Assembly: GCA_965232515.1 (NCBI GenBank)
Contig: CBDDPY010000002.1
Coordinates: 384,001 to 448,000 of the forward strand
Direction: 5' to 3'
From: Alphaproteobacteria bacterium
GTDB taxonomy: Bacteria > Pseudomonadota > Alphaproteobacteria > GCA-2731375
Length of the DNA stretch: 64,000 nucleotides
The notes beneath the pieces were generated by a model. The model was not told the DNA's origin. It did not search any database and saw only the letters and a program-made list of their open reading frames with translations. Made by a program: the position numbers and the translations under genes. Within the stretch, counting starts at the first letter, position 1. Each line of letters opens with the position of its first letter. Shown here in pieces: positions 12,907 to 30,600 of this stretch.

Positions 12907-15900
12907 TTGGGCTTGAGACAGGTCGTCATCTTGCGGGGCAACGAATCTCTGTCACTGACCTGGCGGGTGCTGATCGGCATTGTTGCGGTCGCGACCCTGA
13001 GCGCATTGGTGGGGTTGGGGTTAATCCAACTCACCGGCCTCGAAGAAATCTACGCTCAACAACGGCCGTTCGGCGCCTTGCTCTGGGCGGCCGCCGCCTG
13101 CGCGATGGCCGTGACGATGATGATGATCGTCTGGTTGAGCGTCGTCCGGCCACTGCGGGTTCTGCGGCGGCGGCTGAACGACTTGGCCAACGGCCGGTTT
13201 GAGGACGATGCGGCGCTGCCGGCAATGGCGTCGGCCGAGCTTGTCGCGCTGAAGTCCGATCTGGAACGCGTCGGCCAGACATTGGCGGTACAGGCCGAGC
13301 GGGATGACGAGCGGCGGTTCCACGACCGGTACATGCGGCTCATTGCCCAGGACGTGCCGGCACTCGTGGCCTATGTCGACCGGGACCTGATTTTCAGATT
13401 TGCCAATCGCGGTTATGCCGAGCTGATGGGGACGACGACGGAGGAAATCGTCGGCAAGTCGCTGAAGGAAACGGCCTGTGAGTCGGCCTACGAGGCACTG
13501 AAGGCGCGGGCCGAGATCGCCCTGAGCGGGCAGTCGATCCAGTTCGAGCGCCAGGTTACCTATCCCGACGGGCGGGATATGTGGGCGCGCATGAACTATC
13601 GGCCGGACTTCGATGAAAATGGCGAGGTCGTCGGCTATATCTCGATGATCGTCGACATCGACGAGCACAAACTGGCCGAGGCCGAGCTCAAGCTGAGCGA
13701 GCAGCGTCTGCGCGACTTCGCCGAAGCGGCATCCGACTGGTTCTGGGAGATGGGGCCGGATCTGCGCTTCACCTATATGTCGGAGCAGGTCGAGCGCATC
13801 ACCGGCGTCCCGGTTGGCTTTCATCTCGGCAAGACCCGCGAGGAGCTCGCGACCGGCATCGATGACCAGGCCAATTGGGCTCGACACCAGAAGGTCCTTG
13901 AGGAACGCAAGCCGTTTCGAAACTTCGCCTACTGGCGTCATACCCATGATGGCCGAACCCTGCATGTGACATCGAGCGGCAAGCCGGTCTTTGATCCCGA
14001 CGGCACCTTTCTCGGTTATCGTGGAGTCGGCGCCGACTTGACCAAGGTTGTCGAGGCGGAGCATCGGGCCGAGTTGGCGCAGCAGCGGCTGGTGGATGCG
14101 GTCGAGGCGTTGTCGCAGGGCTTCGTGTTGTTCGACAGCGATGACCGGGTGGTGATGTGCAACCGCCGCTTTCTCGAATTCTTCGACCTGGGCGAAGACG
14201 TCGTCGACGAGCATTGGCGTTTCATCGACATCTGCCGCTACAAGCTGCGCAAGGGCTCTTATCCCGAGGCGGAAGGCCGGGAAGAGGAATGGCTGGCGGA
14301 GCGGTTGGAAAAGCACCGCGGCGCCCACGCTCCGTTCGAATTGCGGTTGGTGACGGGCGAATGGCTACAGATCAGTGAACGACGCACCAGCGACGGTGGC
14401 CTGGTGATCGTGTATTCCGATATCTCGGCGCTGAAGGCGGCCGAGGTGAGCCAGCGCGACGCGCGCGCTCAGGCGGAAGCGGCCAACAAGGCCAAGTCGG
14501 ACTTCCTCGCCAACATGAGCCATGAGATCCGGACACCCATGAATGCGGTCCTGGGCATGTTGGGCATGGTTGCAGACAGCGGCCTTAACTCGGCGCAGCG
14601 CTCTTACGTACAGGTCGCCCGTGATTCGGCCGAGATGCTGCTCGACATGCTGAACGATCTGCTCGACCTCTCGAAGCTCGAGGCCGGAAAGCTCGACCTC
14701 CAGAATGCGGCGTTCGACCTGACATCCGTCGTCGAGGACGCCGTGCAGCTGATGGCGCCGAGAGCCGAGGCCAAAGGCCTTCAACTAGCCACTTATTTCG
14801 ATCCGACGCTGATAGCCGAGCTCGTGGGAGACGGCGCTCGTCTGCGGCAGATCATCCTCAATCTGGTCGGCAACGCCATCAAATTCACCGACGAGGGCGG
14901 CGTATCGATCGCGGTCAGGGCCGCCATGGTCGGCGAAAGATCAGCCGGTCTGCGCATCGAGGTCGCCGACACCGGCATCGGCATCGCCGTGGCCGGCAGC
15001 GAGCCTGGCGTCGTCTTCGAACGCTTTAGCCAGCTCGACACCGAGGCGAACCGCAGTCGGGGAGGAACCGGGCTCGGTTTGGCGATCTGCCGGCATCTTG
15101 TCGAGGCCATGGGCGGCCGGATCGGCTACCGCGGCAACGGCGACGGCGGCTGCACGTTCTGGTTCGAGCTGGGTCTCGGGAAACAGCCCGGCGCGGCCGC
15201 CGGGCGGCCCTATCCGGGGGGCCGGATCCGGGCGCTCGTCTACGAGACCAACGATGTCGTGCGCGCGACGGTCCGCCGGCAGCTCGAGGCCTGGGGCACC
15301 GAGGTCACGTCCTGCGATCGGATCCAGGCGCTTCTGGAGCAGGCGATGACGGCCGCCGGCCCGGCGCCGTTCAACCTTGTTCTGCTGGATCAGGGGGCAT
15401 TGCGTCAGGGACCGCCCAAGCTGCTCGACTGGCTGGGGGCGGGTCGTTGCACGGCCGGCGCCGTGATCGTGTTGTTGAGCCGACCCGGCCACGGTGGGAT
15501 TGGTCAATCCGACGAGACGGAAGATGCGGCCTTGCGCCTGACGAAACCTCTGCGGCAGGCGGACTTGCGCCTATGCCTGGCGCTCGCGCGTGGCGAGAGC
15601 GTGCCGTCGGCTGCGACGCCTGACCATCGACGCGGTGGCGGCGATGCCGCGTCTGCCGGATTGGCCCGGGTTCTGCTGGTCGAGGACAGCCCCACCAATC
15701 AGCTTGTCGGACGTCTGATGCTCGAGGGCGACCGGTTCGAGGTCGATGTCGCCGCCAATGGCGAGGAAGCCGTTCATCGGGTGCAGGCCACGGCGTATGA
15801 CGTCGTGCTGATGGATGTCGCTATGCCGGTCATGGACGGCCTGACCGCAACCAGGCTGATCCGGCAGCTTGGCGGCGATTTTGCCGAATTGCCGATCATT

Positions 15901-16473
15901 GCAATGACCGCAAACGTCATGTCAGGCGACCGGGAGCGCTGCTTTGCCGCCGGTATGACCGATTACATCACCAAGCCGGTCGAACGGGTCGAAATCCTGG
16001 CCGCGATCGGCCGCTGCCTCGATGGTCGGGCGGCGGTGGCCAGGCCGGCCGTGGTGCAGGCATCGTTGCCGGCGGGTGATCTGCTCGATCTCGACATGCT
16101 GCGGCAACTGGGCGCCGACACCGGACTGGATGTGGTGCCCGACCTGATTGCCAGGTTTGCCGACGAAGTGCGCGAGCGGGCCGACCGCATTGCCGCCGCC
16201 GCCGCGGCGGAAGACGGCGAACAGCTGGCGCATGAAGCGCATGCCCTGAAGAGCGGTTCCCGCACCTTCGGCGCGCTGGCGCTGTTCGAGCGCGCCAAGG
16301 CGATCGAATGGGACTGCCGTGACGGCCGTACCTCACGGGCGATCGGCCATTGCGAAGGGCTTCTCGAGCTGGTCGACGCGACGCTTTCGGCGCTCTCCGC
16401 CGTGCCTCGGGAGGCGTTGCGCGCGCCTGCGCCCGCCGACGGCGGCCAGACGGTCAATACTCCTCCGCCTTGA
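12907..16473 (+). CDS. Hybrid sensor histidine kinase (TM-HAMP-3xPAS-HisKA-HATPase-REC-HPt)
   Basis: FLANMSHEIRTPMN H-box, NLVGNAIKFT, GGTGLGL, LMDVAMPVMDG receiver, AHALKSGS HPt. Start uncertain. Confidence 0.92.
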   Translation: MGLRQVVILRGNESLSLTWRVLIGIVAVATLSALVGLGLIQLTGLEEIYAQQRPFGALLWAAAACAMAVTMMMIVWLSVVRPLRVLRRRLNDLANGRFEDDAALPAMASAELVALKSDLERVGQTLAVQAERDDERRFHDRYMRLIAQDVPALVAYVDRDLIFRFANRGYAELMGTTTEEIVGKSLKETACESAYEALKARAEIALSGQSIQFERQVTYPDGRDMWARMNYRPDFDENGEVVGYISMIVDIDEHKLAEAELKLSEQRLRDFAEAASDWFWEMGPDLRFTYMSEQVERITGVPVGFHLGKTREELATGIDDQANWARHQKVLEERKPFRNFAYWRHTHDGRTLHVTSSGKPVFDPDGTFLGYRGVGADLTKVVEAEHRAELAQQRLVDAVEALSQGFVLFDSDDRVVMCNRRFLEFFDLGEDVVDEHWRFIDICRYKLRKGSYPEAEGREEEWLAERLEKHRGAHAPFELRLVTGEWLQISERRTSDGGLVIVYSDISALKAAEVSQRDARAQAEAANKAKSDFLANMSHEIRTPMNAVLGMLGMVADSGLNSAQRSYVQVARDSAEMLLDMLNDLLDLSKLEAGKLDLQNAAFDLTSVVEDAVQLMAPRAEAKGLQLATYFDPTLIAELVGDGARLRQIILNLVGNAIKFTDEGGVSIAVRAAMVGERSAGLRIEVADTGIGIAVAGSEPGVVFERFSQLDTEANRSRGGTGLGLAICRHLVEAMGGRIGYRGNGDGGCTFWFELGLGKQPGAAAGRPYPGGRIRALVYETNDVVRATVRRQLEAWGTEVTSCDRIQALLEQAMTAAGPAPFNLVLLDQGALRQGPPKLLDWLGAGRCTAGAVIVLLSRPGHGGIGQSDETEDAALRLTKPLRQADLRLCLALARGESVPSAATPDHRRGGGDAASAGLARVLLVEDSPTNQLVGRLMLEGDRFEVDVAANGEEAVHRVQATAYDVVLMDVAMPVMDGLTATRLIRQLGGDFAELPIIAMTANVMSGDRERCFAAGMTDYITKPVERVEILAAIGRCLDGRAAVARPAVVQASLPAGDLLDLDMLRQLGADTGLDVVPDLIARFADEVRERADRIAAAAAAEDGEQLAHEAHALKSGSRTFGALALFERAKAIEWDCRDGRTSRAIGHCEGLLELVDATLSALSAVPREALRAPAPADGGQTVNTPPP

Positions 16474-17950
16474 TGGGCGAGGCCGCGGCATCGCCGTCGT
16501 TCTCCGCCCAGGCCTGGCGCTTGCGATAGATCGTCGAAGGGCTGACCTCGAGCAGGGCCGCGGCGCGGGGGATGTTGCCGCCGCAATGCCTGATGGCGGC
16601 CTCGATCGTGTCTCTCTCGATCTGCCAAAGCGGCCGGACCGGGGGCAGGGGCGTCTGCTCGGCTTCCGCCAGTCCGCTCGCTTGGAGCGGTTCCTCGGCC
16701 GTATCGGCGACGTCGGGCGCCGCCAGGATCGGGTCTTCGGGTGGCGTCAAGCCGTCGCTGCGCAACGGTGGCGGCAGCATCTCGCTGCCGACGATCTCGC
16801 CGTCGTTCAGGACCACGACGTTGCGTACGATGTTCTGCAATTGGCGGACGTTGCCGGGCCAGTCGTAGGTCTGCAGCTTGGCTTCCGCTTCGCCCGTGAA
16901 GGTGCGGAACCGGCGGCCTTCCTCGCCGGCATAGGCCGCCAGAAACGCGCGGGCGATTTCCAGCACGTCGTTGCCGCGCTCACGCAGCGGCGGCATGTAG
17001 ATCGGGATTACATGCAGTCGGTAATAGAGGTCTTCCCGGAACTCGCCGGCTTCGACGGCCTTCAGCGGGTCGCGATTGGTGGCGCAGATGAAGCGGACGT
17101 CGACCTTCTCGGTCTTGTTGCCGCCGACCTTCAGGAAACTGCCGGTCTGGATAAAGCGCAGCAGCTTGCTCTGCAGGTTGATGTCCATATCGCAGATCTC
17201 ATCGAGGAACAGCGTGCCGCCGTCGGCCCGCGCGGCCGCGCCCTCACGGTCCTCGAGTGCGCCGGTGAAGGCGCCCTTCACATGGCCGAAGATCTCGCTC
17301 TCGATCAGATCCTTCGGAATGGCGGCGCAGTTGATGGCGACGAATGGCGCGTTCTTGCGCGGGCTGCGCTCGTGCACGGCCTCGGCGCAGATTTCCTTGC
17401 CGGTGCCGCTTTCGCCGGTGATGAACACGGTCGCGCGGCTGCTGGCGGCGCCGTCGATGATCCGGTAGACGGCCTGCATGGCCAGCGACGAACCGATGAA
17501 GCCGCCATATTGCCGGCGGACGATGTCCTCCTCGTAGGTTTCGACGATGCGGGTCAGCCGTTGCCGCTCCAGCGCGTTGCGCAGCGTGAAGACCAGGCGC
17601 TCGGCGTTGAACGGCTTGACCAGGAAGTCGAACGCGCCGCCGCGCATGGCGTCGACGGCGACGTTGATCGAGCCATGCGCCGTAATCACCACGACCGCCG
17701 TCGACAGCCCGTTGTCCCGCACATGGCGCAGGATCTCCATGCCGTCCATGTCCGGCAGTTTCAGGTCCAACAGCACGACCGGCGGCGCCTTTTCGTGCAG
17801 TGCCGTCAAGGCGTCCCTGCCGGTATCGGCGTGCACCACGTCGAACGGCTCGTCGCGAAGGTATTCCAGATAGACCCGGGCCAGAGAAGGGCTGTCTTCG
17901 ACCAGCAAGACCGTGGTCCGGGCACCGCTATCGGCGGCGACCTCCGACAT
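16454..17950 (-). CDS. luxO: Sigma54-dependent response regulator, LuxO-like (REC-AAA+-Fis HTH)
   Basis: LLDLKLPDM receiver; GFIGSS..MQAVYRIID; GESGTGKE; CAAIPKDLIESEIFGHVKGAFTGA; GNIPRAAALLEVSPSTIYRK. Closely resembles Vibrio LuxO as I recall it; orthology not proven. Confidence 0.85.
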   Translation of the reverse strand: MSEVAADSGARTTVLLVEDSPSLARVYLEYLRDEPFDVVHADTGRDALTALHEKAPPVVLLDLKLPDMDGMEILRHVRDNGLSTAVVVITAHGSINVAVDAMRGGAFDFLVKPFNAERLVFTLRNALERQRLTRIVETYEEDIVRRQYGGFIGSSLAMQAVYRIIDGAASSRATVFITGESGTGKEICAEAVHERSPRKNAPFVAINCAAIPKDLIESEIFGHVKGAFTGALEDREGAAARADGGTLFLDEICDMDINLQSKLLRFIQTGSFLKVGGNKTEKVDVRFICATNRDPLKAVEAGEFREDLYYRLHVIPIYMPPLRERGNDVLEIARAFLAAYAGEEGRRFRTFTGEAEAKLQTYDWPGNVRQLQNIVRNVVVLNDGEIVGSEMLPPPLRSDGLTPPEDPILAAPDVADTAEEPLQASGLAEAEQTPLPPVRPLWQIERDTIEAAIRHCGGNIPRAAALLEVSPSTIYRKRQAWAENDGDAAASPIKAEEY

Positions 17951-18305
17951 ATTTCGGTCGGCTATCTCGTTGCTTGATTGCTCGGCGTTCGGTGGCACGA
18001 TTCCTCCCGTCGGCGATGCGTCAAGTTAACATAGGTACGACGTTCGCGTCGTCGATTGGGAATCCGCTTATATGCGAATCTGTCGGCGCACAATCAACCC
18101 CTTGTACAACCGAATTTGTCGTCCGATCGGTCGGACGATTTGCCACCGGCCCTGAGACCGCAACAGACGAAAGCGCCGCTCGCCGATGATCGCCGTCGCG
18201 CCCAAACCTGCGCCGTTCCTGGCTCAACGGCGAATTGCCGGCCCGCGTTGCGGCCTTCTGGCCCGCCGCACGATGGCCGGATGGCCTCGTACAACCGGCC
18301 CGATG

Positions 18306-18334: not shown

Positions 18335-18457
18335 CGATCAAGGTGTTGGGGCGTCTACTGACAGGTGGGGCTCTTCCAACAGTGTTCGGCGATCCGCGGG
18401 CAAACCGACGGGATCGTGTTTCCGGCCTGCGGGTCGGGATCTGTAAGGAGGGGGGAG

Positions 18458-20845
18458 TTGACCGACCATTTCACGATCGCCGTGATCGGGTCAGGGCCCG
18501 CCGGGTTGAGTACGGCTGGCCGGGCGGCCGAGGTGGGGTTGTCGCACGTCCTGTACGAGCGCACCGACCACGCATCGGACACCATCTACAAGTACCAGAA
18601 GGGCAAGTATGTCATGGCGACGCCGGACATCCTGCCGCTTCGCAGCCCGTTCGATTTCGAGGCCGACGTGCGCGAGACCGTGCTGGGGACCTGGGACCGC
18701 CAGCTCGAGGAGTATGGCGTCAACATCGTCTACAACACCGAAGTAACCGGCATCAGCGGCAGCAAAGGCAATTTCGAAATCTCGCTGGCCAACGGCACCA
18801 AGGCCACGGCCGAGAATGTCGTCCTGTCGATCGGCCTGCAGGGCAACCTGCGACGGCTCGAAGTACCGGGCGCGGCCGAAGCGACCCATGTGCAATACCA
18901 GCTCGATGATCCGGACGAATACGAGGACGAGACCATCGTCGTTATCGGCGCCGGTGACGCGGCGATCGAGAACGCGGTCGCGCTGTCGAAGCAGAACAAC
19001 GTCATCATCGTCAATCGGCGCGACGAGTTCGCTCGGGCCAAGCAGGGCAACCTGATCCTAATCACCCAGGCGATCGAGAACGGCGACATCCAGTGTTACT
19101 ACAGCGCCTCGCCGGTCTCCGTGGCGCCGAAGTCGATCACGCTGCGCACGCCGGACGGCGACGCCGAGGTTGCCTGTGACCGGATCATCGCCCGGCTCGG
19201 CGCGATCCCGCCGCGCAAGTTCGTCGAATCCTGCGGCATCGAGTTTCCGAACGACAACCCGGCGTCGCTGCCGGAAGTGTCGAAGCACTACGAATCGAAC
19301 GTTCCCGGCCTCTACATCATCGGCGCGCTCGGCGGCTTCCCTCTGATCAAGCAGGCGATGAACCAGGGCTACGAGGTCGTTGAATTCATTCAGGGAAATA
19401 CCGACCTCAAGCCGGCCGACGAGCCGCTGCTGGAAGAAAAGCTGACGCACCTGTCGGGCGTCAGCGTCGACGACTTCCTGCAGTCCGTGCGTGAGAATGT
19501 GCCGTTGTTCGCCGAGCTCAACCCGCTGCTGTTGCGCGAGCTCATGCTGGACAGCGAGGTGCACCGGCCAAAGGCGGGCGAGGTCATCTTCGAGCGCAAC
19601 GACTACACCAACAGCTTTTTCACCATCGTTGACGGCGAGGTGGACATCCAGGTCGATCCTGACGATCCCAGCCAGGTGGTGACGCTGAAGCGCGGCGAGT
19701 TCTTCGGCGAGATGGGCCTGATATCCGGCCGCCGGCGCGCGGCCACGGTGGTTGCGCGCAGCGAATGTACGCTGTTCGAAAGCAACCGCCGGACCATGAT
19801 CAAGCTGGTCAACTCGGTCGAGGAAGTGAAGCGGGTACTGGATCAGACCGCGATCGTCCGCCAGATCCAGACCTATCTGGCGCCCGACCTGTCGACCGAG
19901 GACCTGAGCGATGTCGTCGCCTCGGCCTCGCTGCACAGCCTGAAAGAGGGCGAGCAGCTGTTCCAGGAGGGTGAGACCGGTGACGCCGTTCATCTGATCC
20001 GCCGTGGCTCGGTGACGGTGTCCAGGCGCATCGGCGGGCGCGAGATCGTCTTGTCCTATGTCGCCGCCGGCAACTATATCGGTGAGATGGCGCTGCTGTC
20101 GGATGCGCCGAGGTCGGCGACGGTGCGTGCGGCGATCAACGGCACCGAAACCATCCGTATCGAAGGCGAGGCCTTCAAGACGCTGATGGATCGGGCGCCG
20201 GAGCTGCGCCGCGAAATCGATCAAAAGTTCCGCGACCGGATCGCCGACAACGAACGAATGGCGAGCGCGCCCGAAGCCGGCAGCATTATCCAGTTCCTCG
20301 TCGAGCAGGGCGTTGGCGAGGCGACCGACATCCTGCTGATCGATGAAGCGCTGTGCGTGCGTTGCGATAACTGCGAGAAGGCCTGCGCCGAAACCCATGG
20401 CGGCATCTCCCGTCTCGACCGCGAGGCCGGACCGACCTTCGCCAACGTCCACGTCCCGACCTCGTGCCGGCACTGTGAGCATCCGCATTGCATGGCCGAC
20501 TGTCCGCCGGACGCGCTGCATCGCGACAGCAACGGCGAAGTCTGGATCGACGATTCCTGCATCGGCTGTGGCAACTGCGAGCGGAACTGCCCCTACGGCG
20601 TGATCCACCTGGCGGCCAAGCCGCCGAAGAAGCCAGGCCTGCTCAACTGGCTGCTCTGGGGTGCGGGACCGGGGCCTGGCGAAGACAAGACGGCGAAGGG
20701 CGAAGGTTCCAAGCTGGCCGTGAAATGCGACATGTGCAAGGACATCAAGGGCGGTGCGGCCTGCGTGCGGGCCTGTCCGACCGGTGCGGCGATCCGCGTC
20801 AGTCCCGAGGAGTTCCTTGACCTTGCGGCCCTGGCGCAGCGCTAG
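18458..20845 (+). CDS. Fusion: TrxR/FNR-like FAD-NAD(P)H oxidoreductase + 2 cNMP-binding domains + 4x[4Fe-4S] ferredoxin domain
   Basis: TTG start after AAGGAGG; GSGPAG and GAGDAA Rossmann motifs; FGEMGL..R.ATV and IGEMAL..RSATV cNMP cassettes; CVRCDNCEKAC, CRHCEHPHCMADCP, CIGCGNCERNCP, CDMC..CVRACP. Confidence 0.88.
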   Translation: MTDHFTIAVIGSGPAGLSTAGRAAEVGLSHVLYERTDHASDTIYKYQKGKYVMATPDILPLRSPFDFEADVRETVLGTWDRQLEEYGVNIVYNTEVTGISGSKGNFEISLANGTKATAENVVLSIGLQGNLRRLEVPGAAEATHVQYQLDDPDEYEDETIVVIGAGDAAIENAVALSKQNNVIIVNRRDEFARAKQGNLILITQAIENGDIQCYYSASPVSVAPKSITLRTPDGDAEVACDRIIARLGAIPPRKFVESCGIEFPNDNPASLPEVSKHYESNVPGLYIIGALGGFPLIKQAMNQGYEVVEFIQGNTDLKPADEPLLEEKLTHLSGVSVDDFLQSVRENVPLFAELNPLLLRELMLDSEVHRPKAGEVIFERNDYTNSFFTIVDGEVDIQVDPDDPSQVVTLKRGEFFGEMGLISGRRRAATVVARSECTLFESNRRTMIKLVNSVEEVKRVLDQTAIVRQIQTYLAPDLSTEDLSDVVASASLHSLKEGEQLFQEGETGDAVHLIRRGSVTVSRRIGGREIVLSYVAAGNYIGEMALLSDAPRSATVRAAINGTETIRIEGEAFKTLMDRAPELRREIDQKFRDRIADNERMASAPEAGSIIQFLVEQGVGEATDILLIDEALCVRCDNCEKACAETHGGISRLDREAGPTFANVHVPTSCRHCEHPHCMADCPPDALHRDSNGEVWIDDSCIGCGNCERNCPYGVIHLAAKPPKKPGLLNWLLWGAGPGPGEDKTAKGEGSKLAVKCDMCKDIKGGAACVRACPTGAAIRVSPEEFLDLAALAQR

Positions 20846-20909
20846 GCATGTGCAATAGCCCGACAATGTGCCCGCGCGGCAAACGCAGAACCAAGAAGTA
20901 GGCGAGGGT

Positions 20910-21740
20910 ATGCACGAATCCATCCTGGTGTATCGGCGGTTTCGGTTCCTGAAATGGGCGCTGCTTCTCATGGTCGTGGCCGTTGTCGCCTACGCCGTCG
21001 ACCAGCCCCTCGGCGTGCCGAATGGCGGCACCTGGCTAGGCTACACGCTGGGTACGATCGCGGCCCTGCTGATCGTTTGGCTGACCTGGTTCGGCGTCCG
21101 CAAGCGACGCTACAACCTCGGTCCGACGAAACTCGAGGCCTGGCTGTCGGCGCACGTCTATCTCGGCCTGACCCTGATCATCGTCGCGACGCTGCATACC
21201 GGTTTCCAGTTTGGCTGGAACGTCCACACGCTTGCCTACACGCTGATGATGCTCGTCATCCTGAGCGGTATTTTCGGCGTCTACGCCTACATGCGCTATC
21301 CGGCGCTGATGACCGAAAACCGCCGCGGTCAGACGCTGAACGAAATGCTGGCCCAGATCGCAGAGATCGATGCTGAATGCCGAGACGCTGCGCTGGGGCT
21401 TGGCGATGAGATCAGCAGCGCCGTCCTCAATGCCGCGCAAAACACGCGGATCGGCGGCGGCATGCGCCGACAGCTCTCGGGTCACGATCCGGCCTGCGCC
21501 ACGACGGCCGCCCGCCAGACCGTGCAGGGATTGGCCGAGAGCGCGGAAGCCGGCCAGGCTGAAAGCACCCGTCGGCTGATTTCGCTGTTGTTGCGTAAGG
21601 AGGAGTTGCTGCGCCGCGCGCGTCGTGACGTTCAGTTCAAGGCGTTGATGGATATCTGGTTGTATGTACACGTGCCACTGACGATCGCGCTGATCGCGTC
21701 GTTGGTCGCGCACATCCTTTCCGTCTTCTTCTACTGGTAG
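20910..21740 (+). CDS. Integral membrane protein with intramembrane histidines (possible b-heme / ferric reductase-like subunit)
   Basis: About five hydrophobic helices; His in SAHVYLG, TLHTG, NVHTL, YVHVPL, VAHIL. Confidence 0.75.
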   Translation: MHESILVYRRFRFLKWALLLMVVAVVAYAVDQPLGVPNGGTWLGYTLGTIAALLIVWLTWFGVRKRRYNLGPTKLEAWLSAHVYLGLTLIIVATLHTGFQFGWNVHTLAYTLMMLVILSGIFGVYAYMRYPALMTENRRGQTLNEMLAQIAEIDAECRDAALGLGDEISSAVLNAAQNTRIGGGMRRQLSGHDPACATTAARQTVQGLAESAEAGQAESTRRLISLLLRKEELLRRARRDVQFKALMDIWLYVHVPLTIALIASLVAHILSVFFYW

Positions 21741-21748: not shown

Positions 21749-23461
21749 GTGCAAAGTCTGGTTTCGCACCTCACCCGAAAGGCCCGCGGCGGCTACGTCC
21801 ACCGCGATCTCGAGGTCACGTCGGAAATCATCCGGCTCGGCCGCGGCGCCGACAGCGAAGTGTATCTTCCCGACCCCCGCGTGCCGCTGCATGCCGCCGA
21901 GATCCACAGCCAGCCGGGCGGCTACTTCATCCAGGTCGTCGGGCCGGCCAGCCTGCGGGTCAACGGCGCCGTGACCAACAGCGCGCAGTTGAAAGCCGGC
22001 GACAAGGTGGCGTTGGGGCCCTACGACATCGAGATCGTGGCGCCGCCCGCGGGCAAGGATTTCGGACTGACGGTCGAACTGGTCCGCCCGCTTGGCGACG
22101 ATCTCGAGCAGCTGCGCAGCCGCAGCCGCCTTGAGCTATCCGAGACCTGGCTGACCCGCCGCCGCATGGCCTGGCTGCTGGCGGTGATCGTGCTGGCGCT
22201 GTTCCTGGCCATGCCGCTCGCCGGCTTCTTCATGACCCCGCCCGAGGCGCGGCAGAATTTCGTCGAGGCCGAGCCCGACACCGGACCGCTGGCCACCGCC
22301 GATCAGGTTTGGCTCAGCGGCGAGATGTCGGGACCCCACAAGTTTTTCGGCGCGGCCTGCGAGGCCTGCCATCAGCAGCCGTTCGTGCAGGTGCGCGACG
22401 ACACTTGCCTGTCCTGCCATACCGACATCGAGCATCATGCCGAGCCGATGCGGTTCGAGAACGCGGCCGGCGGCGACGTGCCGGCCTGCCAGAGCTGCCA
22501 CAAGGAGCACAACGGCAACGAGGCTATCGTGCTCAACGATCAGGCCTTCTGCAGCAGCTGCCACGCGGATCTCGACAAACGCCTGAACGACGCGGCCCTG
22601 CTGAACGTCTCGGACTTCACCGCAAACCATCCGCAGTTCCGGCCGACCGTCGTCGTCGTGCACGAGACCGGCAAGATGCAGCGCATCTCCTTGTCGGAGA
22701 AGGACAAGCTGGTCGAGCAGTCCGGCATCAAGTTCCCGCACGACAAGCACCTGGTGACCGAGAACGGCGGCATCCGCGCGCCAGAGGGCCGGCGGGTTCT
22801 CGGCTGCAACGACTGCCACGTGGTCGAGCCGGGCGGGCAGGGCCTGCTGCCGATTCGCATGCTGGAGCACTGTCAGGAGTGTCACCAGCTCACCTTCGAC
22901 AAGTCGGCGCCGAAGCGTGTGGTGCCGCACGGTAAGCCGAAGGAGGTGCAGGAGATCCTGAAGGACTTCTACGCCAAGGCGGCGCTGCAGGGTGGCTTCG
23001 ACGACCCCTCGGCGCCGGCGGTCGTGCGCCGGCTGCCGGGCACCCCGTTGCCGCCGGCGGCGGCGAATGACGCGCTGGCCTGGGCCGCGCAGCGGGCCGA
23101 TCAGGCGATATCCATGACCTTCGGCAAGCGGATTTGCGGCACCTGTCACAAAGTCCTGCAGGACCCCAATGGTATTTGGGACGTGATCAAACCGCAGATC
23201 GCGGATCGTTGGATGCCGAAGGGGATCTTCCATCACGCCAGCCACGAAACCATGAAATGCGGCGACTGCCACGAGGCGGCGAAGTCCAAGGTCAGCACCG
23301 ACATCCTGCTGCCTGGTATCGAGAGCTGTCAGGAATGCCACGGTAGCGAGATGGCGACGGACAAAGTCCCCTCGACCTGCATCATGTGCCACCAGTTCCA
23401 CATCGAGGGACAGCCGCGCATGGCGGGCGAGCCGGCCACGGCCGCGATGAAGCAGAATTGA
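21749..23461 (+). CDS. FHA domain - TM helix - decaheme c-type cytochrome
   Basis: N-terminal LGRGAD..LPDPRV..H..I and VNG FHA pattern; one TM; 10 CxxCH (CEACH, CLSCH, CQSCH, CSSCH, CNDCH, CQECH, CGTCH, CGDCH, CQECH, CIMCH). Confidence 0.88.
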   Translation: MQSLVSHLTRKARGGYVHRDLEVTSEIIRLGRGADSEVYLPDPRVPLHAAEIHSQPGGYFIQVVGPASLRVNGAVTNSAQLKAGDKVALGPYDIEIVAPPAGKDFGLTVELVRPLGDDLEQLRSRSRLELSETWLTRRRMAWLLAVIVLALFLAMPLAGFFMTPPEARQNFVEAEPDTGPLATADQVWLSGEMSGPHKFFGAACEACHQQPFVQVRDDTCLSCHTDIEHHAEPMRFENAAGGDVPACQSCHKEHNGNEAIVLNDQAFCSSCHADLDKRLNDAALLNVSDFTANHPQFRPTVVVVHETGKMQRISLSEKDKLVEQSGIKFPHDKHLVTENGGIRAPEGRRVLGCNDCHVVEPGGQGLLPIRMLEHCQECHQLTFDKSAPKRVVPHGKPKEVQEILKDFYAKAALQGGFDDPSAPAVVRRLPGTPLPPAAANDALAWAAQRADQAISMTFGKRICGTCHKVLQDPNGIWDVIKPQIADRWMPKGIFHHASHETMKCGDCHEAAKSKVSTDILLPGIESCQECHGSEMATDKVPSTCIMCHQFHIEGQPRMAGEPATAAMKQN

Positions 23462-23529: not shown

Positions 23530-23970
23530 ATGCGTAATTGGGGTGGCAGGCAGGCGTTCCTGACGGCGGTGTTCACACTGTCGTTCGCTGCCGGTGCTGC
23601 CGCGGCCGAGAAGCTGACGGTGGCAGGTGCCGCCCTCGCCGACGTGACCGTCAATCCGGCGACCGTCGCAACCACGGGCATCAGCCGCACCATCGAACTG
23701 TCGGGCGACGCCCCGGCGGCAACCTTCGTGACCGCACACCTGCCGGACGGCAAGCATCTCCAACGCAGTAATCTGGGCTACTGGCTGCCCTGGGACGGCG
23801 ATGTCGACAGCCTGATCGACAACCGGCTGCCGCTGAACGGCGATGGCACCGTCACCTTCAAGGTGGTCAAGGAAGACCTCTCCGACAAGATGTTCCCGAT
23901 CGCCGTCACGCTGGCCTACACCGTCGGCGAGCAGGTCAAGTTCGGCGTATTTCAGATCCTGCCGCAATGA
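23530..23970 (+). CDS. Small exported hypothetical protein
   Basis: Signal peptide ending AAAA-EK; stop overlaps the next ATG (ATGA). Confidence 0.7.
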   Translation: MRNWGGRQAFLTAVFTLSFAAGAAAAEKLTVAGAALADVTVNPATVATTGISRTIELSGDAPAATFVTAHLPDGKHLQRSNLGYWLPWDGDVDSLIDNRLPLNGDGTVTFKVVKEDLSDKMFPIAVTLAYTVGEQVKFGVFQILPQ

Positions 23971-25823
23971 CGATGACGATACCCAAAACGATCAAGCTTC
24001 TCGCCGCCACCTCGATTGCCGCCTGTCTGAGCGTCGCCGCGTCGGCGCAGGAGGCGCTGACCACGGACGAGGTTGGCACCATCATCGCGCAGGCGGCCAT
24101 GGAGGCGCAGACGCGCGGCCGGCCGGCGACGATCGCCGTGGTCGACCGCGTCGGCAACGTCCTGGGCGTCTTCACCATGACCGGCGCGCCTGCGACGGCG
24201 CTGGTGTCGACCTTCCGCGGAGTCACCTCGGGGCTCGAGGGCGCCAACGTGCCGTCGACGACGGCGGCCATCGCCAAGGCCGTTACCGGCGCTTATCTGT
24301 CGTCCGGCGGCAATGCCTTCTCGACCCGAACGGCCAACCAGATCGTGCAGGAATCGTTCAACCCGGGCGAGTCGAGCCAGCCCAGCGGCCCGTTGTTCGG
24401 CGTGCAGTTCAGCCAGCTGCCATGCTCGGACTTCAACACCCGCTTCGCGCCGATGACGGCGAACGCGCTGATCGGGCCGAAGCGCTCGCCGCTCGGCATG
24501 TCGGCCGATCCGGGCGGACTGCCGCTCTACAAGAACAACGTGCCCGTCGGCGGCATCGGCGTCCTGTCCGACGGTATCTACGGCATCGACCGCAACATCC
24601 TCGACATCGACAACGATGACGACGAGCTGATCGCGGTGGCCGGCACCTTCGGTTTCGATCCGCCGGCCGATATCCGGGCCGAGCGCATCACGGTCGAGGG
24701 TAAGACCCTGCGGTTCACCGACCTCAGCTTTGAATCGCTGCAGTCGGACCCGAACAGCGCCCCGTCCTTTGCCGCCGTGAACGGCACGCTCGGCAGCCTG
24801 ACGGCGGTTAACGGCTACACCGCGGCGGCGCTGTCGGCCGGCGTCGCCTACGGCACGGCCGCCTCCGGCGTGCGGCCCGACAACGAGGGCGTCTATTCGG
24901 CCATCATGCAGCCGTTCGTGTTCGTCGACGGTACCGATACGAACCGGTTCCCACCGCGCGCCGGCAGCGACGGCATTCTGACCGCCGCCGAGGTCACCGA
25001 TCTCGTCAATCAGGCGCTTAACATCGCCTTCCGCGGCCGTGCGCAGATCCGCCGCCCGTTGAACAGCTTCATCCAGGTAACGATCTCGGTCGTCGATACC
25101 AACGGCGTGATCCTGGCCATGGCCCGGACGCCGGACGGTCCGATGTTCGGCAGCGACGTGTCGCTGCAAAAAGCCCGCACCGCGGCATTTTTCTCCAGCT
25201 TCTTCGCCGCCGCCGATCTGCGCCAGGGAGGCTTCGGCAGCTACGTGGACGCGACCAAGGCCTTCATCGGCCCGACCGCGCTCGAGGACGGCGTCGCCTT
25301 CGCCGACCGTTCCGGCGGCAACCTGTCGCGCCCGTATTATCCGGACGGCAACGTCAACAACCAGAACGGACCGTTAAGCCGGCCGTTCGGCGACTGGAGC
25401 CCGTTCTCGACCGGCCTGCAGCTCGACATGGTCGCCGGCAACATCGTCACCCATCTGGGCTTCGTCCAGAGCCTCAACGCCGATACGCCGGCGCGCTGCA
25501 CGCCGTTGCCGTTGCGGCTGGCCAGCGGCTCGAACGCCATTCCGAACGGTATTCAGATCTTCCCGGGCAGCGTGCCGGTGTTCAAGAACGGTGCTCTGGC
25601 CGGCGGTCTGGGCGTTTCCGGCGACGGCATCGACCAGGACGACATGATTTCGTTTCTCGGCACCCACAATGCCGGCGTGTCGCTGGCTTCCGGTGTCGGC
25701 AACGCGCCACAGGAAGTGCGGGCCGACCGGCTGACGCCGCAGGGGTCGCGGCTGCGCTACGTCAACTGCCCCTTCAAGCCGTTCATCGCGTCGAACGAGC
25801 AAAACGTCTGCAGCGGCAAATGA
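23967..25823 (+). CDS. Exported heme-binding protein with two GlcG/HbpS-like domains
   Basis: Signal peptide; two copies of the pattern (I/V)AVVD..G...AKA.T / PGG(L/S)P(L/V)..N...GG(I/L)GV(S)G. Confidence 0.8.
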   Translation: MTMTIPKTIKLLAATSIAACLSVAASAQEALTTDEVGTIIAQAAMEAQTRGRPATIAVVDRVGNVLGVFTMTGAPATALVSTFRGVTSGLEGANVPSTTAAIAKAVTGAYLSSGGNAFSTRTANQIVQESFNPGESSQPSGPLFGVQFSQLPCSDFNTRFAPMTANALIGPKRSPLGMSADPGGLPLYKNNVPVGGIGVLSDGIYGIDRNILDIDNDDDELIAVAGTFGFDPPADIRAERITVEGKTLRFTDLSFESLQSDPNSAPSFAAVNGTLGSLTAVNGYTAAALSAGVAYGTAASGVRPDNEGVYSAIMQPFVFVDGTDTNRFPPRAGSDGILTAAEVTDLVNQALNIAFRGRAQIRRPLNSFIQVTISVVDTNGVILAMARTPDGPMFGSDVSLQKARTAAFFSSFFAAADLRQGGFGSYVDATKAFIGPTALEDGVAFADRSGGNLSRPYYPDGNVNNQNGPLSRPFGDWSPFSTGLQLDMVAGNIVTHLGFVQSLNADTPARCTPLPLRLASGSNAIPNGIQIFPGSVPVFKNGALAGGLGVSGDGIDQDDMISFLGTHNAGVSLASGVGNAPQEVRADRLTPQGSRLRYVNCPFKPFIASNEQNVCSGK

Positions 25824-27670
25824 AAATGCGTATTCGTATCCTGTTGATGGCTTCCGTCCTGGCGTTGACGCCGTTCACCGTACAGGCCGGCAAGGAACGC
25901 ATCCTCGGCGTTTCGCCGCAATCCGGCTCCGGCTTTCAGGTGCGCCCCGGCGGCGGCGCCGGCTTCGCCGTGCCGGGCGACCGCACCCGTGTGGCGCAGC
26001 GCCGCGTGCCGGGCTCGCCGCCGCCCGGCGCGCCCGAGGACCTGCCGCCCATCGATCCGGACGCGGTGCCGCCGCCGGCGCCGAACCTGCCGCGCGAGTT
26101 CATCCCCATTCCGGACCGCTGGCGACTGATCGAGGCCGTCGGCGTTAACGAGAAATGGTGGGATCCCTATAACCAGAACACGCTGAAGGGCGACCGGCCG
26201 GTCTACAAGGACTGGTTCGTGAACCTGCTGGTGATTTCCGACACCGTGTTCGAGCCGCGCTCGTTCCCGACGCCGATCGCGCCGCAGACCAGCGAAGAGG
26301 CCGGCGATCTCGACGTCTTCGGCGACAACGATCAGATCCTGTTCAACGAAAACCTGATCGTCAGCCTGTCGATCATCAAGGGCAACACCGCCTACAAGCC
26401 GCCGGACTACGAGTTCCGCTTCACGCCGATTTTCAACTACAACCGCGTCGAGGCGGAAGAGAACCGGGTCCTGCTGATCGATCCCGATCGCGGCCGTACC
26501 CGTACCGACCGGCAGCTCGCCTGGCAGGAACTGTTCGTCGACTACCACATTCACAACGTCTCGGACCGCTACGACTTCGATTCGATCCGAGGCGGCATCC
26601 AGCCGTTTTCCAGCGACTTCCGCGGCTTCCTGTTCCAGGACAGCCAGCTCGGCGTGCGCCTTTTCGGCAGCCGCGACAACAACATCTTCCAGTACAATCT
26701 GGCCTGGTTCCGGCGGCTGGAGAAGGACACCAACAGCGGTCTGAACGACATCACCACGAGCGTCCGCGACGACGACATCTACGTGGCGAACCTCTACTGG
26801 CAGGACTTCCTGAAGCTGGGCTTCGTCAGTCAGATCACGGTGCTGCACAACCGCAACCGCGAGGACAACGCCACTTTCTTCAATCTCAACGGTTTCCTCG
26901 AGCGACCGGCGCCGATCGGCGAGGAACGGCCGCGCAACTACGACGTCACCTATATCGGCTATAACGGCGACGGCCGGCTGGGCCGCTTCAACCTGACGGC
27001 GTCGGCCTACTACGCCTTCGGCGAGGACAGTCGCAACAACTTCGCCAGCCTCGACGATTCCGACATCCGCGCCTGGTTCTTCGCCGCCGAGCCATCGATC
27101 GACTTCAGCTGGATCCGGCTGCGCGGCTCGTTCCTCTACGCCAGCGGCGACGACGACCCCTTCGACGACCGCGAGGAAGGCTTCGACGCGCCGTTCGAAA
27201 ATCCGCAGTTCGCCGGCGCCGACACCAGCTACTGGATCCGTCAGACCATTCCGCTGGTCGGCGGCGGCGGCCTGGCGCTGTCGCAGCGCAACGCCGTCTT
27301 GCCGTCGCTCAAGTCCTCGAAGGAGCACGGTCAGTCGAACTTCAACAATCCCGGACTCTGGCTGGTCGGCGTTGGCACTGATCTCGACCTGACGCCGGAG
27401 CTGCGGCTGTCGACCAACTTCAACTATCTGAGGTTCGACAACACGTCCAACCTCGAGTTCCTGCGCAATCAGGGCGATATCGACGAGTCGATCGGCTACG
27501 ACCTGTCGGCGGCGCTGATCTGGCGGCCGCTGTTCATCCAGAACATCGTGCTGCGGCTGTCCGGCGCGGTGCTGATCCCGGAGACCGGCTTCGACGATCT
27601 GTTCAAGGCCGAGGACGACAGCGAGGACATCTTCTATTCGGTCCTGGCCAACCTGGTGCTGACCTATTAG
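25820..27670 (+). CDS. Outer-membrane beta-barrel protein (putative porin)
   Basis: Signal peptide, Pro-rich N-terminal linker, many alternating amphipathic strands rich in aromatics/Asp/Asn, C-terminal ANLVLTY (BAM-type terminal aromatic). Confidence 0.75.
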   Translation: MKMRIRILLMASVLALTPFTVQAGKERILGVSPQSGSGFQVRPGGGAGFAVPGDRTRVAQRRVPGSPPPGAPEDLPPIDPDAVPPPAPNLPREFIPIPDRWRLIEAVGVNEKWWDPYNQNTLKGDRPVYKDWFVNLLVISDTVFEPRSFPTPIAPQTSEEAGDLDVFGDNDQILFNENLIVSLSIIKGNTAYKPPDYEFRFTPIFNYNRVEAEENRVLLIDPDRGRTRTDRQLAWQELFVDYHIHNVSDRYDFDSIRGGIQPFSSDFRGFLFQDSQLGVRLFGSRDNNIFQYNLAWFRRLEKDTNSGLNDITTSVRDDDIYVANLYWQDFLKLGFVSQITVLHNRNREDNATFFNLNGFLERPAPIGEERPRNYDVTYIGYNGDGRLGRFNLTASAYYAFGEDSRNNFASLDDSDIRAWFFAAEPSIDFSWIRLRGSFLYASGDDDPFDDREEGFDAPFENPQFAGADTSYWIRQTIPLVGGGGLALSQRNAVLPSLKSSKEHGQSNFNNPGLWLVGVGTDLDLTPELRLSTNFNYLRFDNTSNLEFLRNQGDIDESIGYDLSAALIWRPLFIQNIVLRLSGAVLIPETGFDDLFKAEDDSEDIFYSVLANLVLTY

Positions 27671-27685
27671 GGGCGCGACGTGGGC

Positions 27686-30600
27686 ATGAAAGCAGTATTC
27701 GGTACCCTGATCGCGGCAACCCTGTTGTTGACCGGCACGGCGGCGCTGGCTGCCAGCGGCGAAAGCCCGCGCAGCGTCACCTATTCCGTCACCCCGCCGG
27801 CGCCACGCGGACAGGCGCCTTCCGAGGCGGCCAAGAAGAGCCTCGGCTGCATGAGCTGCCACACCGAGACCGACTCGGCCACCATGCACAACAACCCTGC
27901 CGTCGTGCTGGGTTGCACGGACTGCCATGGCGGCGATGCGACCGTCATGCGGCCGCCGGGCACCGTCTATGCCGACGACAGCTATCGCCGGGCGCTCGAC
28001 CAGGCGCATGTCCAGCCGCGGTTCCCCGAGACCTGGGGCTATCCGTCGAGCGCCACGCCGCCGCGCACATATTCGATCCTGAACCGGGAAGCGCCGGAAT
28101 ACATCCGCTTCATCAATCCGGCCGATTACCGGATCGCGCGCGAGGCCTGCGGCGCTTGCCATCTGTCGGATATCCATGCCACCGAACGCAGCCTGATGTC
28201 GACGGGCGCCATGCTGTGGGGCGGCGCCGCCTACAACAACGGCATCCTGCCCTACAAGAACTACATCGTCGGCGAAGCCTATACGCGCGAAGGCGTGCCG
28301 GCCGGCGTCGTCAGCCCGAATGCCGACAAGCTGACGCCATCGATGCTGCGCCGGGGTCTGTTGCCGCAACTCGTGCCACTGCCGGCCTTCGAGGTGACGG
28401 TGCCGGGCGACGTTTTCCGCGTGTTCGAACGCGGCGGCCGCAATATCCTGAATCTGTTCCCGGAGATCGCAAATCCGAACAGTCTGGGTCAGCTGCAGCG
28501 CCTGGAAGAGCCGGGCCGGCCTGACTTGCGGCAATCGAACCGCGGTCCCGCCACGGGCCTCAGGATCTCGGTGCCGATCCTCAACGTCCACAAGACGCGA
28601 CTGAACGATCCGTTCATGTGGTTCATGGGCACCAACGATCAGCCGGGCGACTACCGTTCCTCGGGCTGCGCCGGCTGCCACGTGATCTACGCCAACGACC
28701 GCGACCCGATCCATTCCGGTCCCTATGCGGTCTACGGCAACGAGGGCAAGAGCCACTCCGTCGACCCGACCATTCCGAAGAACCGGTCGGGCCATCCGAT
28801 CAAGCACGAGTTCACGCGCGCCATTCCGACCTCGCAGTGCATGCCCTGCCACATGCACCAGCCGAACATCTTCCTGAACTCCTATCTCGGCTACACCATG
28901 TGGGACTACGAGTCCGACGCGCCGGCGATGTGGCCGGAGCAGCAGAAGTATCCGAGCCATTCCGAGATGTTCGAGACGCTGTCCCGCAATCCCGAGGAAG
29001 CGGCGATCCGCGGCAAGTGGAGCGACGTCGAGTTCACCAAGAAGGTCAGCGAGCTCAACCCGACCCTGAACGCCACCCAGTTCGCCGATTACCACGGTCA
29101 CGGCTGGAATTTCCGCGGCATCTTCAAGAAGGACCGCAAGGGCAACCTGCTGGATGCCGAGGGCAAGATCGTCGAGCCGGACGATCCCGAAAAATTCAAG
29201 AAGGCCGTGCATATGAAGTCGATCCATGCCGAGGTCGGCATGCAATGCGTCGACTGCCATTTCGAGGGCGATACCCACGGCAACGGCTATATCTACGGCG
29301 AGGTCGCGCCGGCCATCGAAATCCGTTGCAAGGATTGCCACGGCACCGTCGATACCGCGCCGCCGCTGACTACCAGCGGCCCGGCCGCGGCGCCGGGTGG
29401 CCGGCCGCTGGGGCTGCTGCGCCAGGCCGATGGCCGCAAGCGCTTCGAGTATCGCGGCACCGAATGCGACAAGCCGCGCAACGAGCCCCGCGACTGCCGC
29501 CTCTATCAGCGTTCGGCCGTCTGGCCGGACCTGGAATGGGAAGTCTCGCTGCTGCGCGACAACGTCGATCCCAGCCATCCGACCTACAACGAGAAGTCGG
29601 CGCGGGCGAAGCTGATGTCAGAGGGCACCTCGATGGAATGGGGCCCGGGCGTCAAGAAGGAAGATCTGGCGCATAAAGACGACGAGATGATGTGCTTCAC
29701 CTGCCATCTCTCCTGGACCACGTCGTGCGCCGGCTGTCACCTGCCGATCCAGGCCAACTGGAAGACCGAACGGCATCGCTACGAGGGCGGCGAGACCCGC
29801 AACTTCGCGACCTATAATCCGCAGGTCGCCCGCGACCAGATGTTCCAGCTCGGCCGTCACAGCCCGGTCAAGGGCAGCGCCATCACGCCGATCCGCTCGA
29901 GCTCCGCGCTGGTGCTCTCGTCGCGCAACATCAACCGCGAGCTGATCTATATCCAGCAGCCGCCGGTGGCCGCCAGCGGCCATTCCAGTCAGGCCTTCGC
30001 GCCGCACTTCCCACACACGGCGCGCAAGACCGAGACCAAGACCTGCTCCGACTGCCATTTGAGCGAAGAGAACGACAACAACGCGATCATGGCGCAGCTC
30101 CTGCTGCACGGGACCAACTTCGTGAACTTCGTCGGCTACAACGCCTGGGTCGGCGGCGAGGGCGGTTTCGAGGCCGTGCGCGTCACCGAGTGGGACGAGC
30201 CGCAGGCCGTGATTGGCAGCTACCTTCACCGCTACGCCTACCCCGATTGGTATGCCGAGCATCAGGCGCGCGATCGCAAGCTCTACGAGAGCTACTCCCA
30301 GGGCGGCGCCATCGCCTCCTGTCTGCAGCTGCGCGGCGAGTACCTCTATGTGGCCGAGGGGCCGGACGGCATGCAGGCCTATGACGTCGCCAGCATCGCC
30401 AACAAGGGCCACTCCGACAAGATTATCAAGGCGCCGTTCAGCCAGATGGGCCACAACACGCGCATTGCCAGCAAGAATGCGACGTGCGTGGTGCTGCCGA
30501 CCAACCAGCCGATCCATCCGGACCGTATCGACTCGGATCCGGAACGGGCCAAGCTGATGTACGAGGACAACCTCGAGCAGCCATTCCATCCGATCTACGA

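Follow-up and report, generated by a model that had tools for sequence, protein, structure and literature searches.

The PCC3 and PCC4 gene clusters have in common an inner membrane protein (IMP) that is conserved and has been likened to a ferric-reductase domain, and in subgroup II of PCC4 a gene for an Fe-S protein (pfam13247) lies upstream of the IMP gene (He et al. 2017, PMC5566968). A preprint on oxygen-deficient zones names a ptdABCDEFG cluster and calls its function 'completely unknown' (bioRxiv 10.1101/2023.11.21.568154). In Ferrigenium straubiae, a nonahaem cytochrome (NHC) cluster, expressed in all tested conditions, encodes an FHA-nonahaem cytochrome, a five-transmembrane (5-TM) protein and a [4Fe-4S] protein (bioRxiv 10.64898/2026.01.22.701106). 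The excerpts of these three sources used here describe the core module and contain no functional test of it. Here we analyse a 64,000-nucleotide stretch of alphaproteobacterial DNA (contig CBDDPY010000002.1 of assembly GCA_965232515.1), referred to as the window, and in it a gene at 18458..20845 (+) whose 795-residue product (P0001), here called FCF, fuses a flavoprotein domain, two cyclic nucleotide (cNMP)-binding domains and a ferredoxin with four [4Fe-4S] clusters. Judged by gene order and domain content, the cluster is a variant of the known, uncharacterised PCC4/ptd-type conduit. We suggest, with a probability of roughly 0.45, that FCF forms the cytoplasmic subunit through which electrons enter a conserved redox system of the envelope and that the tandem cNMP module is its regulator.

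The window cluster has the gene order of the ptdEFG and PCC4 subgroup II module: a cNMP/Fe-S protein is followed by a 5-TM protein with two WX3HX13H motifs (here called MEM) and then by a decahaem cytochrome c (here FHAcyt). It also has a porin and further multihaem cytochromes in common with the ptd and PCC4 clusters as excerpted. Ptd includes a pentahaem protein, PtdA, whereas the window has none and its cytochromes carry 10, 10 and 4 CxxCH, so that the cluster does not amount to a whole ptdABCDEFG. Instead of PtdA it has an HbpS-like protein and an LVIVD decahaem protein, g1288, and its decahaem cytochrome bears an FHA domain. In addition, Ptd has a separate flavohaemoprotein-like protein, PtdC, whereas the flavoprotein of the window is of the TrxR/YpdA type and is fused to the cNMP/Fe-S protein. 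The Ferrigenium NHC cluster, which we could compare by description only, likewise has a cytoplasmic FHA domain on a single-TM multihaem cytochrome, next to which a cytosolic [4Fe-4S] protein and a 5-TM protein are encoded; it has nine haems rather than the ten of FHAcyt, its neighbours include nirK and an SHP-like gene, and its excerpt mentions neither a flavoprotein nor a cNMP domain. The fused TrxR-like form, and the HbpS-like and LVIVD-decahaem partners, are not described in the excerpts of the three sources, and our literature searches found no functional study of FCF or its module.

A related module occurs in one genome (G040), where a paralogue of FCF has three cNMP stretches and the ferredoxin and no flavoprotein. 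Upstream of it lies a tetrahaem cytochrome. The genes downstream encode a 269-residue membrane protein, whose His 73/87 and 246/260 repeat the His pattern of MEM, then cytochromes with ten and with five haems, and a 475-residue protein. The module and the core of the window cluster are homologous, with identities of 31% (FCF), 24% (MEM) and 25% (FHAcyt), and from its gene content the layout of the module is that of ptd/PCC4. Many relatives without FCF encode a protein of about 570-590 residues that matches the second cNMP domain and the ferredoxin only.

The open frame of FCF runs from 18365 to 20845 (+). Its start is most likely TTG 18458, because a Shine-Dalgarno sequence, AAGGAGG, stands at 18445-18451, 7 bases upstream, and because the alignments of full-length homologues begin at residue 1-3. 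Third-position G+C (GC3) is 0.85, in a window with a G+C content of 63-69%, and the protein has neither a signal peptide nor a Tat signal.

Residues 6-304 of FCF match Pyr_redox_3 and Pyr_redox_2 in Pfam. Among NCBIfam models, YpdA scores highest for the N-terminus (TIGR04018; 125.9 bits against a cut-off of 339.9, E 1.4e-36), and the thioredoxin reductase (TrxR) model TIGR01292 gives 63.9 bits against a cut-off of 343.45. FCF falls outside both families, and in the case of YpdA/Bdr the active-site Cys has been replaced as well: in the alignment to YpdA/Bdr 7a7b (7.3e-16), 'GSGPAGLS' of FCF faces 'GGGPCGLS', with Ala in the place of the Cys. In the alignment to the solved TrxR 5mh4, 'VQY-QLDDPDEY' faces VSYCAVCDGAFF, and since QLDD stands opposite CAVC, FCF lacks the CxxC; further along, 'NRRDEFARAKQ' faces 'HRRDKL-RAQE'. 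These features were followed in an alignment, A1, of P0001, 32 full-length representatives and 4 named relatives (37 rows, 32-76% identity to the query), whose rows were picked for a match over about residues 1-790, with fragments and four long variants excluded. Cys is found at position 15 in 0/37 relatives and CxxC at the TrxR position in none of the rows, and the residues for flavin adenine dinucleotide (FAD; G11/G13/G16) and for NAD(P)H (G166/D167/E171) are invariant. The HRR...R of TrxR is presumably an NADPH-selectivity motif, and because of NRRDEFAR the electron donor of the window FCF is probably NADPH.

The C-terminus carries four CxxCx(2-8)CxxxC(P/A) motifs, with C633/636/639/643, C670/673/678/682, C701/704/707/711 and C757/760/769/773 as cluster ligands, and these 16 Cys are invariant in all 37 full-length relatives. 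With 37.8 bits for Fer4_11 (cut-off 26.2), this part of the protein is a four-cluster ferredoxin. The solved chains closest to it come from formate hydrogenlyase (HycB, 7z0s_B, 1.1e-17), HycB3 (7qv7_A), ArrB and PsrB/'NrfC' (2vpw_B); among NCBIfam models it matches AegA (5.4e-18) and also HydN, DmsB and NrfC, with no equivalog cut-off reached.

For the middle of the protein, cNMP_binding (PF00027) places FCF in its family with two matching stretches (E 1.9e-37, 127.6 bits against a cut-off of 27.5). The phosphate-binding cassette of such domains follows the motif G-E...R-[STA]-A, and the cassettes of FCF, FGEMGLISGRRRAATV in domain A and IGEMALLSDAPRSATV in domain B, are both canonical, with the triads GER-A-A and GER-S-A. 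The nearest solved matches of residues 321-558 are the tandem cNMP domains of PKG and PKA-R (E 1e-27 to 1e-15). Pyr_redox, cNMP_binding and Fer4 matches occur together in 37/37 rows of A1 (Pfam), and the four-part feature is far beyond chance. A first-pass annotation had already described a TrxR-fold N-terminus without CxxC, an NRRDEF stretch like the HRR motif, a GE...R cassette in both cNMP domains and a DmsB/NrfC-like four-cluster C-terminus, and all four descriptions hold in these alignments. Its view of FCF as a stand-alone, unusual enzyme has to be given up, since FCF belongs to a common family and its gene opens a conserved operon for membrane and multihaem proteins.

The FCF family is large and common, not rare. 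A word-seeded protein search gave 6877 proteins at E <= 1e-3 among 8000 candidates scored, and the best 120 of these have 768-842 residues, are 63-97% identical and show the same Pfam set; those with a name mostly go by 'cyclic nucleotide-binding domain-containing protein', and the organisms named include Oceanibacterium hippocampi, Nisaea acidiphila and Zavarzinia sp. An exhaustive search of 50%-identity representatives found 38368 at 1e-3, 7531 at 1e-10 and 990 at 1e-30. Among 401 evenly sampled genomes of the class, 27 (about 7%, in 20 of 308 genera) have FCF at E <= 1e-100, and full-length relatives also occur in Gammaproteobacteria and Acidobacteriota.

The order FCF, MEM, FHAcyt, small periplasmic protein, HbpS-like protein, porin-like protein, g1288 is kept in 6/6 same-family genomes, with gaps of -4 to +64 bases between the genes in the window. 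MEM lies directly after FCF in 13 of 15 diverse full-length loci, found in a scan of 1/64 parts of the genome collection and coming from Alphaproteobacteria, Chromatiales, Wenzhouxiangella, Steroidobacteraceae, Lysobacter and metagenome-assembled genomes (MAGs) of Thermoanaerobaculia; the two exceptions are L020 and L018, the latter with a rearranged cluster that runs into the flank limit. Of the 401 genomes of the class, 26 have a strong MEM match (E <= 1e-83), every one of them FCF-positive, and the 11 weaker matches (1e-24 to 1e-11) in FCF-negative genomes resemble paralogous membrane proteins.

Gene fusions tie the same parts together. P0126 (1110 residues) and P0272 (1136 residues) are in-frame fusions of FCF and MEM that keep every one of the four Fe-S motifs and the two His motifs, and because the two are 60% identical over 1120 positions, junction included, we take the fusion to be inherited and no sequencing slip. 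P0282 (893 residues) joins cNMP, Fer4 and MEM parts, with both His motifs present. These three were counted as the credible MEM-containing fusions. In P0138 (1134 residues), two FHA domains are fused N-terminally to FCF, which suggests that the FHA module is functionally tied to the cytoplasmic head.

Other candidate fusions were rejected. Nine of the 11 longer MEM-containing proteins (P0273-P0281) are each short of one Fe-S motif or one His motif, at the junction or close to it, and the junctions of P0273, P0275 and P0276 resemble out-of-frame translation of high-G+C DNA with open wrong frames. The genes occupy different frames in G289, G374 and G388, and in G134 the FCF frame is just 825 residues from stop to stop. 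Open-frame lengths in genome searches can mimic fusions in high-G+C DNA.

MEM has the make-up of a PCC3/PCC4-type IMP: five hydrophobic segments, WX3HX13H on TM3 and TM5 and SGxxG on TM4. The AlphaFold2 model (pLDDT 82.7, pTM 0.71) has long helices at residues 12-30, 42-67, 72-97, 104-138 and 214-275. The motifs read W78x3H82x13H96 (TM3) and W250x3H254x13H268 (TM5), with a His spacing of 14. In 20 orthologues of 26-72% identity, H82, H96, H254 and H268 are invariant, as are W78 and S119, G120 and G123 of the S-G-x-x-G on TM4, and W250 is kept in 19/20. RRFRFLK precedes TM1, and an invariant R64-K65-R66 follows TM2; by the positive-inside rule, both His-bearing helices should run from the cytoplasm to the periplasm. 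H82 and H254 would then hold a haem on the cytoplasmic side and H96 and H268 one on the periplasmic side, and in all likelihood MEM is a b-type cytochrome with two haems. FHAcyt, encoded next, has 10 CxxCH, as do 17/17 complete orthologues (three truncated rows excluded), and matches the Pfam FHA family PF00498 (24.4 bits against a cut-off of 20.7) together with cytochrome c3/c7 families. In its FHA domain (21749-22050), GR is kept in 19/20 orthologues and NG or DG in most.

We propose that NAD(P)H would reduce the FAD of FCF, and that electrons would pass through its four [4Fe-4S] clusters to the cytoplasmic-side haem b of MEM (H82/H254), across to the periplasmic-side haem b (H96/H268), into the ten c-haems of FHAcyt and onward to the operon's proteins in the periplasm and the outer membrane. 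Such a path would be a quinone-independent electron export, NOX-like or like that of Fre with MsrQ. NAD(P)H is a low-potential donor, and the exit of electrons from a negative-inside cell is downhill; we therefore favour the outward direction, and reverse flow is disfavoured because only a very strong donor could drive it, with an input of energy for which the operon has no genes. Because the path would spend both reducing power and membrane potential, the conduit would need a brake. The tandem cNMP module is placed between the flavin and the Fe-S wire and resembles the cNMP pair of a PKA regulatory subunit, and the binding of cAMP or cGMP to it would most likely alter how FAD meets the first cluster, or how the ferredoxin docks on MEM. 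Going a step further, it is possible, although we regard it as rather doubtful, that the module is a second-messenger clutch and that this would be the first known bacterial electron-export chain that is fed directly by cytoplasmic NAD(P)H, is switched at the protein level by cAMP/cGMP and bypasses quinones.

Several observations weigh against the regulated outward conduit, and we take them here with the alternatives on which they bear. The Arg pair of NRRD varies across the FCF family in A1, and the donor may therefore differ between members. FHA domains bind phosphothreonine through the Arg of GR, the Ser of SxxH and the Asn of NG, and this Ser contact is present in just 1/20 FHAcyt orthologues, so that phosphothreonine binding is doubtful and the domain may be a phospho-independent adaptor. 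One genome that is 98% complete (G322) has FCF and no MEM match genome-wide, the sole such case, and a MAG locus (L020) has a full-length FCF with no partner within 8 kb downstream; FCF in these two may have other partners or be a remnant. At the G322 locus (contig C4, L098), FCF is full-length and neither MEM nor cytochromes lie nearby.

The cNMP cassettes are degenerate in many relatives. Both G-E...R triads are found in 19 of the 37 rows of A1, that of domain A only in 6, that of domain B only in 2 and neither in 10; taken singly, the cassette of domain A keeps its Glu in 36/37 rows and its Arg in 25/37, and that of domain B in 24/37 and 27/37. The 10 relatives without either triad are among the most divergent rows and still keep the whole architecture, and where the tandem fold is kept without its ligand site it should therefore also have a role independent of that site. 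They would fit a somewhat unlikely alternative, in which the same outward NAD(P)H conduit carries the tandem domains as a rigid spacer, a dimerisation module or a sensor of some other ligand, not as a cAMP/cGMP switch, and in which regulation would lie with the FHA domain or with the neighbouring two-component transcriptional control. The Ptd-type paralogue, with its three cNMP stretches and no flavoprotein, is consistent with this, and domains of the CRP/FNR fold are known to bind many other effectors. However, both cassettes are canonical in the window FCF and in all of its close relatives in A1 (P0004, P0017, P0053, P0076 and P0122), PKG and PKA-R tandems are the best solved matches, and a search of the host genome (7.39 Mb) with PF00211, the domain of class-III adenylate/guanylate cyclases, gives 54 matches, an unusually rich repertoire for cNMP signalling. 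With canonical cassettes and so many cyclase matches, cNMP sensing is plausible for the window FCF, and a cNMP-gated electron valve is a plausible reading of this protein, not one that is universal in the family. The valve proposed in the first-pass annotation thus survives in part: the anatomy fits, as does the operon context, which shows what a valve would feed, and its universality fails with the 10 relatives that lack both triads.

Electrons could also run inwards, the cytochromes taking them from extracellular or periplasmic donors (for example a cathode, Fe(II), Mn(II) or reduced sulfur) and passing them through MEM and FCF to NAD(P)+ or another acceptor. We consider this improbable: on general bioenergetic grounds, the reduction of NAD(P)+ through haems against a negative-inside potential calls for an electron source of much lower potential than Fe(II), and the operon appears to contain no energy-coupling subunit. 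Nevertheless, PCC3 and PCC4 are drawn from donor to inner membrane in iron oxidisers, and the direction proposed for them in the excerpt, from an extracellular donor to the quinone pool, is opposite to ours (He et al. 2017, PMC5566968). The Ferrigenium FHA-nonahaem cluster is likewise discussed in the excerpt in connection with Fe(II) oxidation (bioRxiv 10.64898/2026.01.22.701106), and one relative (L024) comes from a MAG labelled 'Biocath'.

Searches with MEM did not bear out a link to the ferric reductases. The ferric reductase domain (FRD) PF01794 has no match at E <= 0.001 in the whole genome, MEM included, and hhalign of the MEM orthologue alignment against five FRD/MsrQ sequences, a thin template, gives a probability of 0.4%. 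Foldseek with the MEM model returns nothing at E <= 0.001 (best E 0.33), and VIA-align returns generic helical bundles (Z <= 10.6), with no NOX/FRD chain among the best 50. A profile search of solved chains with MEM has a best E of 0.18. E. coli CybB 5oc0 (Z 8.0, 130 aligned, root mean square deviation 3.6), cytochrome b561 4o6y (Z 8.0) and the designed two-haem bundle 7ah0 (Z 9.0) all lie within helical-bundle noise. The profile, hhalign and fold searches did not show MEM to be a member of the FRD or the cytochrome b561 family.

A last alternative, that MEM reacts with quinones as a cytochrome b of the NarI, FdnI, HyaC or CybB kind, so that FCF and MEM would form a regulated NAD(P)H:quinone oxidoreductase or the cytochromes would tap the quinol pool, has in our view a small chance: a four-cluster protein on a dihaem b anchor is indeed the layout of NarGHI and FdnGHI, MEM weakly matches Ni_hydr_CYTB / cytochrome b561 (PF01292; 20.8 bits against a cut-off of 30.1, over TM5 only) and scores Z 8.0 against CybB and cytochrome b561 in the fold comparison, and the excerpt of He et al. 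2017 (PMC5566968) suggests a quinone-active cytochrome b, but the Pfam and fold signals are both within helical-bundle noise, no quinone-site motif was identified in MEM, and the FHAcyt gene follows directly, its product anchored beside MEM.

The outward, cNMP-regulated conduit remains the reading that we prefer, and the rest of the operon (Table 1) suggests where its electrons might go. The small periplasmic protein has no Pfam or NCBIfam match, and tblastn finds matches at the same position in relatives; the HbpS-like protein, with domains of a haem-binding or haem-degrading, GlcG-type family, is a fixed operon member whose position is conserved in relatives. The 616-residue protein is likely an outer-membrane barrel or porin; it has no Pfam match and a weak one to DESULF_POR1 (17.8 bits), and it is conserved in synteny. 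g1288 is highly conserved (48-72% identity in relatives, against 42-76% for FCF at these loci); a sequence search found no solved structure related to it, and it is locally similar to ExtM of a selenite/tellurite reduction operon (1.4e-17). Beyond the cytochrome operon, a type II secretion cluster (35013-43308) encodes a prepilin peptidase, GspF, a pseudopilin, GspK, a GspL/PilN-like protein, GspM and the GspD secretin. The adjacency of g1288, the c554-like gene and this cluster is seen in two of four relatives (G021 and G023, not G007 and G134). Together with the conservation of g1288, it hints that the system works at the outer membrane or outside it. The c554-like gene adjoins FCF or g1288 in L018, L020, L096, L097, L100 and L102.

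Table 1. Coordinates of the FCF domains, the operon and its neighbours in the window.
Feature	Position	Strand	Basis and remarks
FCF flavoprotein domain, residues 1-320	18458..19417	+	YpdA/TrxR-like FAD + NAD(P)H, without CxxC, without YpdA Cys
FCF cNMP domain A, residues ~346-460	19493..19837	+	Pfam; cassette GEMGLISGRRRAAT
FCF cNMP domain B, residues ~476-600	19883..20257	+	Pfam; cassette GEMALLSDAPRSAT
FCF four-cluster ferredoxin, residues ~626-790	20333..20827	+	Fer4 families at ~625-780 (Pfam) and 16 Cys
MEM	20910..21740	+	276 residues, 5-TM, putative dihaem cytochrome b
FHAcyt	21749..23461	+	FHA domain, one TM helix (residues ~145-163), periplasmic decahaem cytochrome c
Small periplasmic protein	23530..23970	+	Signal-peptide-like N-terminus; start inferred; open reading frame 23386-23970
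HbpS-like (GlcG/DUF336) periplasmic protein	23967..25823	+	618 residues, signal peptide, PF03928 1.1e-19, 3 stretches
Porin-like protein	25820..27670	+	616 residues, signal peptide, no Cys, C-terminal ...LTY
g1288	27680..31546	+	1288 residues, 10 CxxCH, LVIVD beta-propeller repeats (Pfam 5.6e-19)
c554-like tetrahaem cytochrome c	33018..34376	-	Pfam Cytochrome_C554, 4 CxxCH
NtrC-type sigma-54 response regulator	16454..17998	-	Pfam; divergent from operon
Hybrid PAS histidine kinase	12907..16473	+	PAS, HisKA, HATPase, REC, Hpt (Pfam)

On the other side of FCF, the hybrid kinase (+) and the NtrC-type activator (-) overlap by 20 bases at their 3' ends, and a homologue of the sigma-54 activator adjoins the FCF cluster in three of six close relatives (L009, L010 and L013). 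A scan for the sigma-54 -24/-12 pattern TGGCAC-N5-TTGC, allowing up to 2 mismatches, gave 62 matches against 72.5 expected, with no convincing site upstream of FCF in 17999-18457, and scans for sigma-70 promoters and terminators were at chance level. The sole strong terminator-like site in 17900-33100 is a hairpin of 12 pairs, rich in G+C and followed by a T run, at 32951-32978 (-), some 40 bases downstream of where the c554-like gene stops; between 31547 and 33017 there are only open reading frames without family matches. Contigs from RNA sequencing (run X4, libraries labelled with other organisms) contain a relative about 97% identical that covers 28 of 30 bins of 16000-34500; run X21 gave no coverage. 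Since the coverage is even over intergenic DNA and the opposite-strand regulator, DNA carry-over is possible in run X4.

If the proposed scheme is true, the cluster would be a prokaryotic, modular counterpart of a regulated NOX that feeds a trans-envelope multihaem system. In the known routes of extracellular electron transfer (Mtr, Pcc, Cbc and Imc), electrons come from quinols; a chain of the kind suggested here would give aerobic or facultative bacteria a new outlet or supply line for reducing power, fed straight from NAD(P)H, and would be a rare case of direct second-messenger control over electron transfer. Because the family is large and uncharacterised, thousands of genes would gain an annotation from one biochemical study.

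Each part of FCF has its counterpart in a known system. YpdA/Bdr and thioredoxin reductase are the best sequence matches to the N-terminal 300 residues and have the FAD and NAD(P)H motifs in common with them, whereas FCF lacks the catalytic Cys of YpdA and the CxxC of TrxR and scores under the family cut-offs. A four-cluster protein like the C-terminus is found in NarGHI and FdnGHI, HycB, HydN and AegA, and AegA, like FCF, joins such a domain to an NADPH flavoprotein, although that flavoprotein is GltD-like and of another family; unlike the NarGHI/FdnGHI-type enzymes, the FCF system has no molybdopterin subunit and no Tat signal. The regulatory subunits of PKA and PKG likewise have two consecutive cNMP domains with canonical cassettes, but the module of FCF sits between two redox domains and has no kinase-inhibitor segment. 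For the system as a whole, the logic would be that of NOX/FRE and of Fre with MsrQ/MsrP, whose textbook layout leads from cytoplasmic NAD(P)H through a flavin and two stacked bis-His b-haems on TM3 and TM5 to an acceptor on the far side. Unlike in these systems, MEM has no detectable homology to their membrane domain, the flavin domain is TrxR-like rather than FNR-like, and an Fe-S wire and two cNMP domains are interposed.

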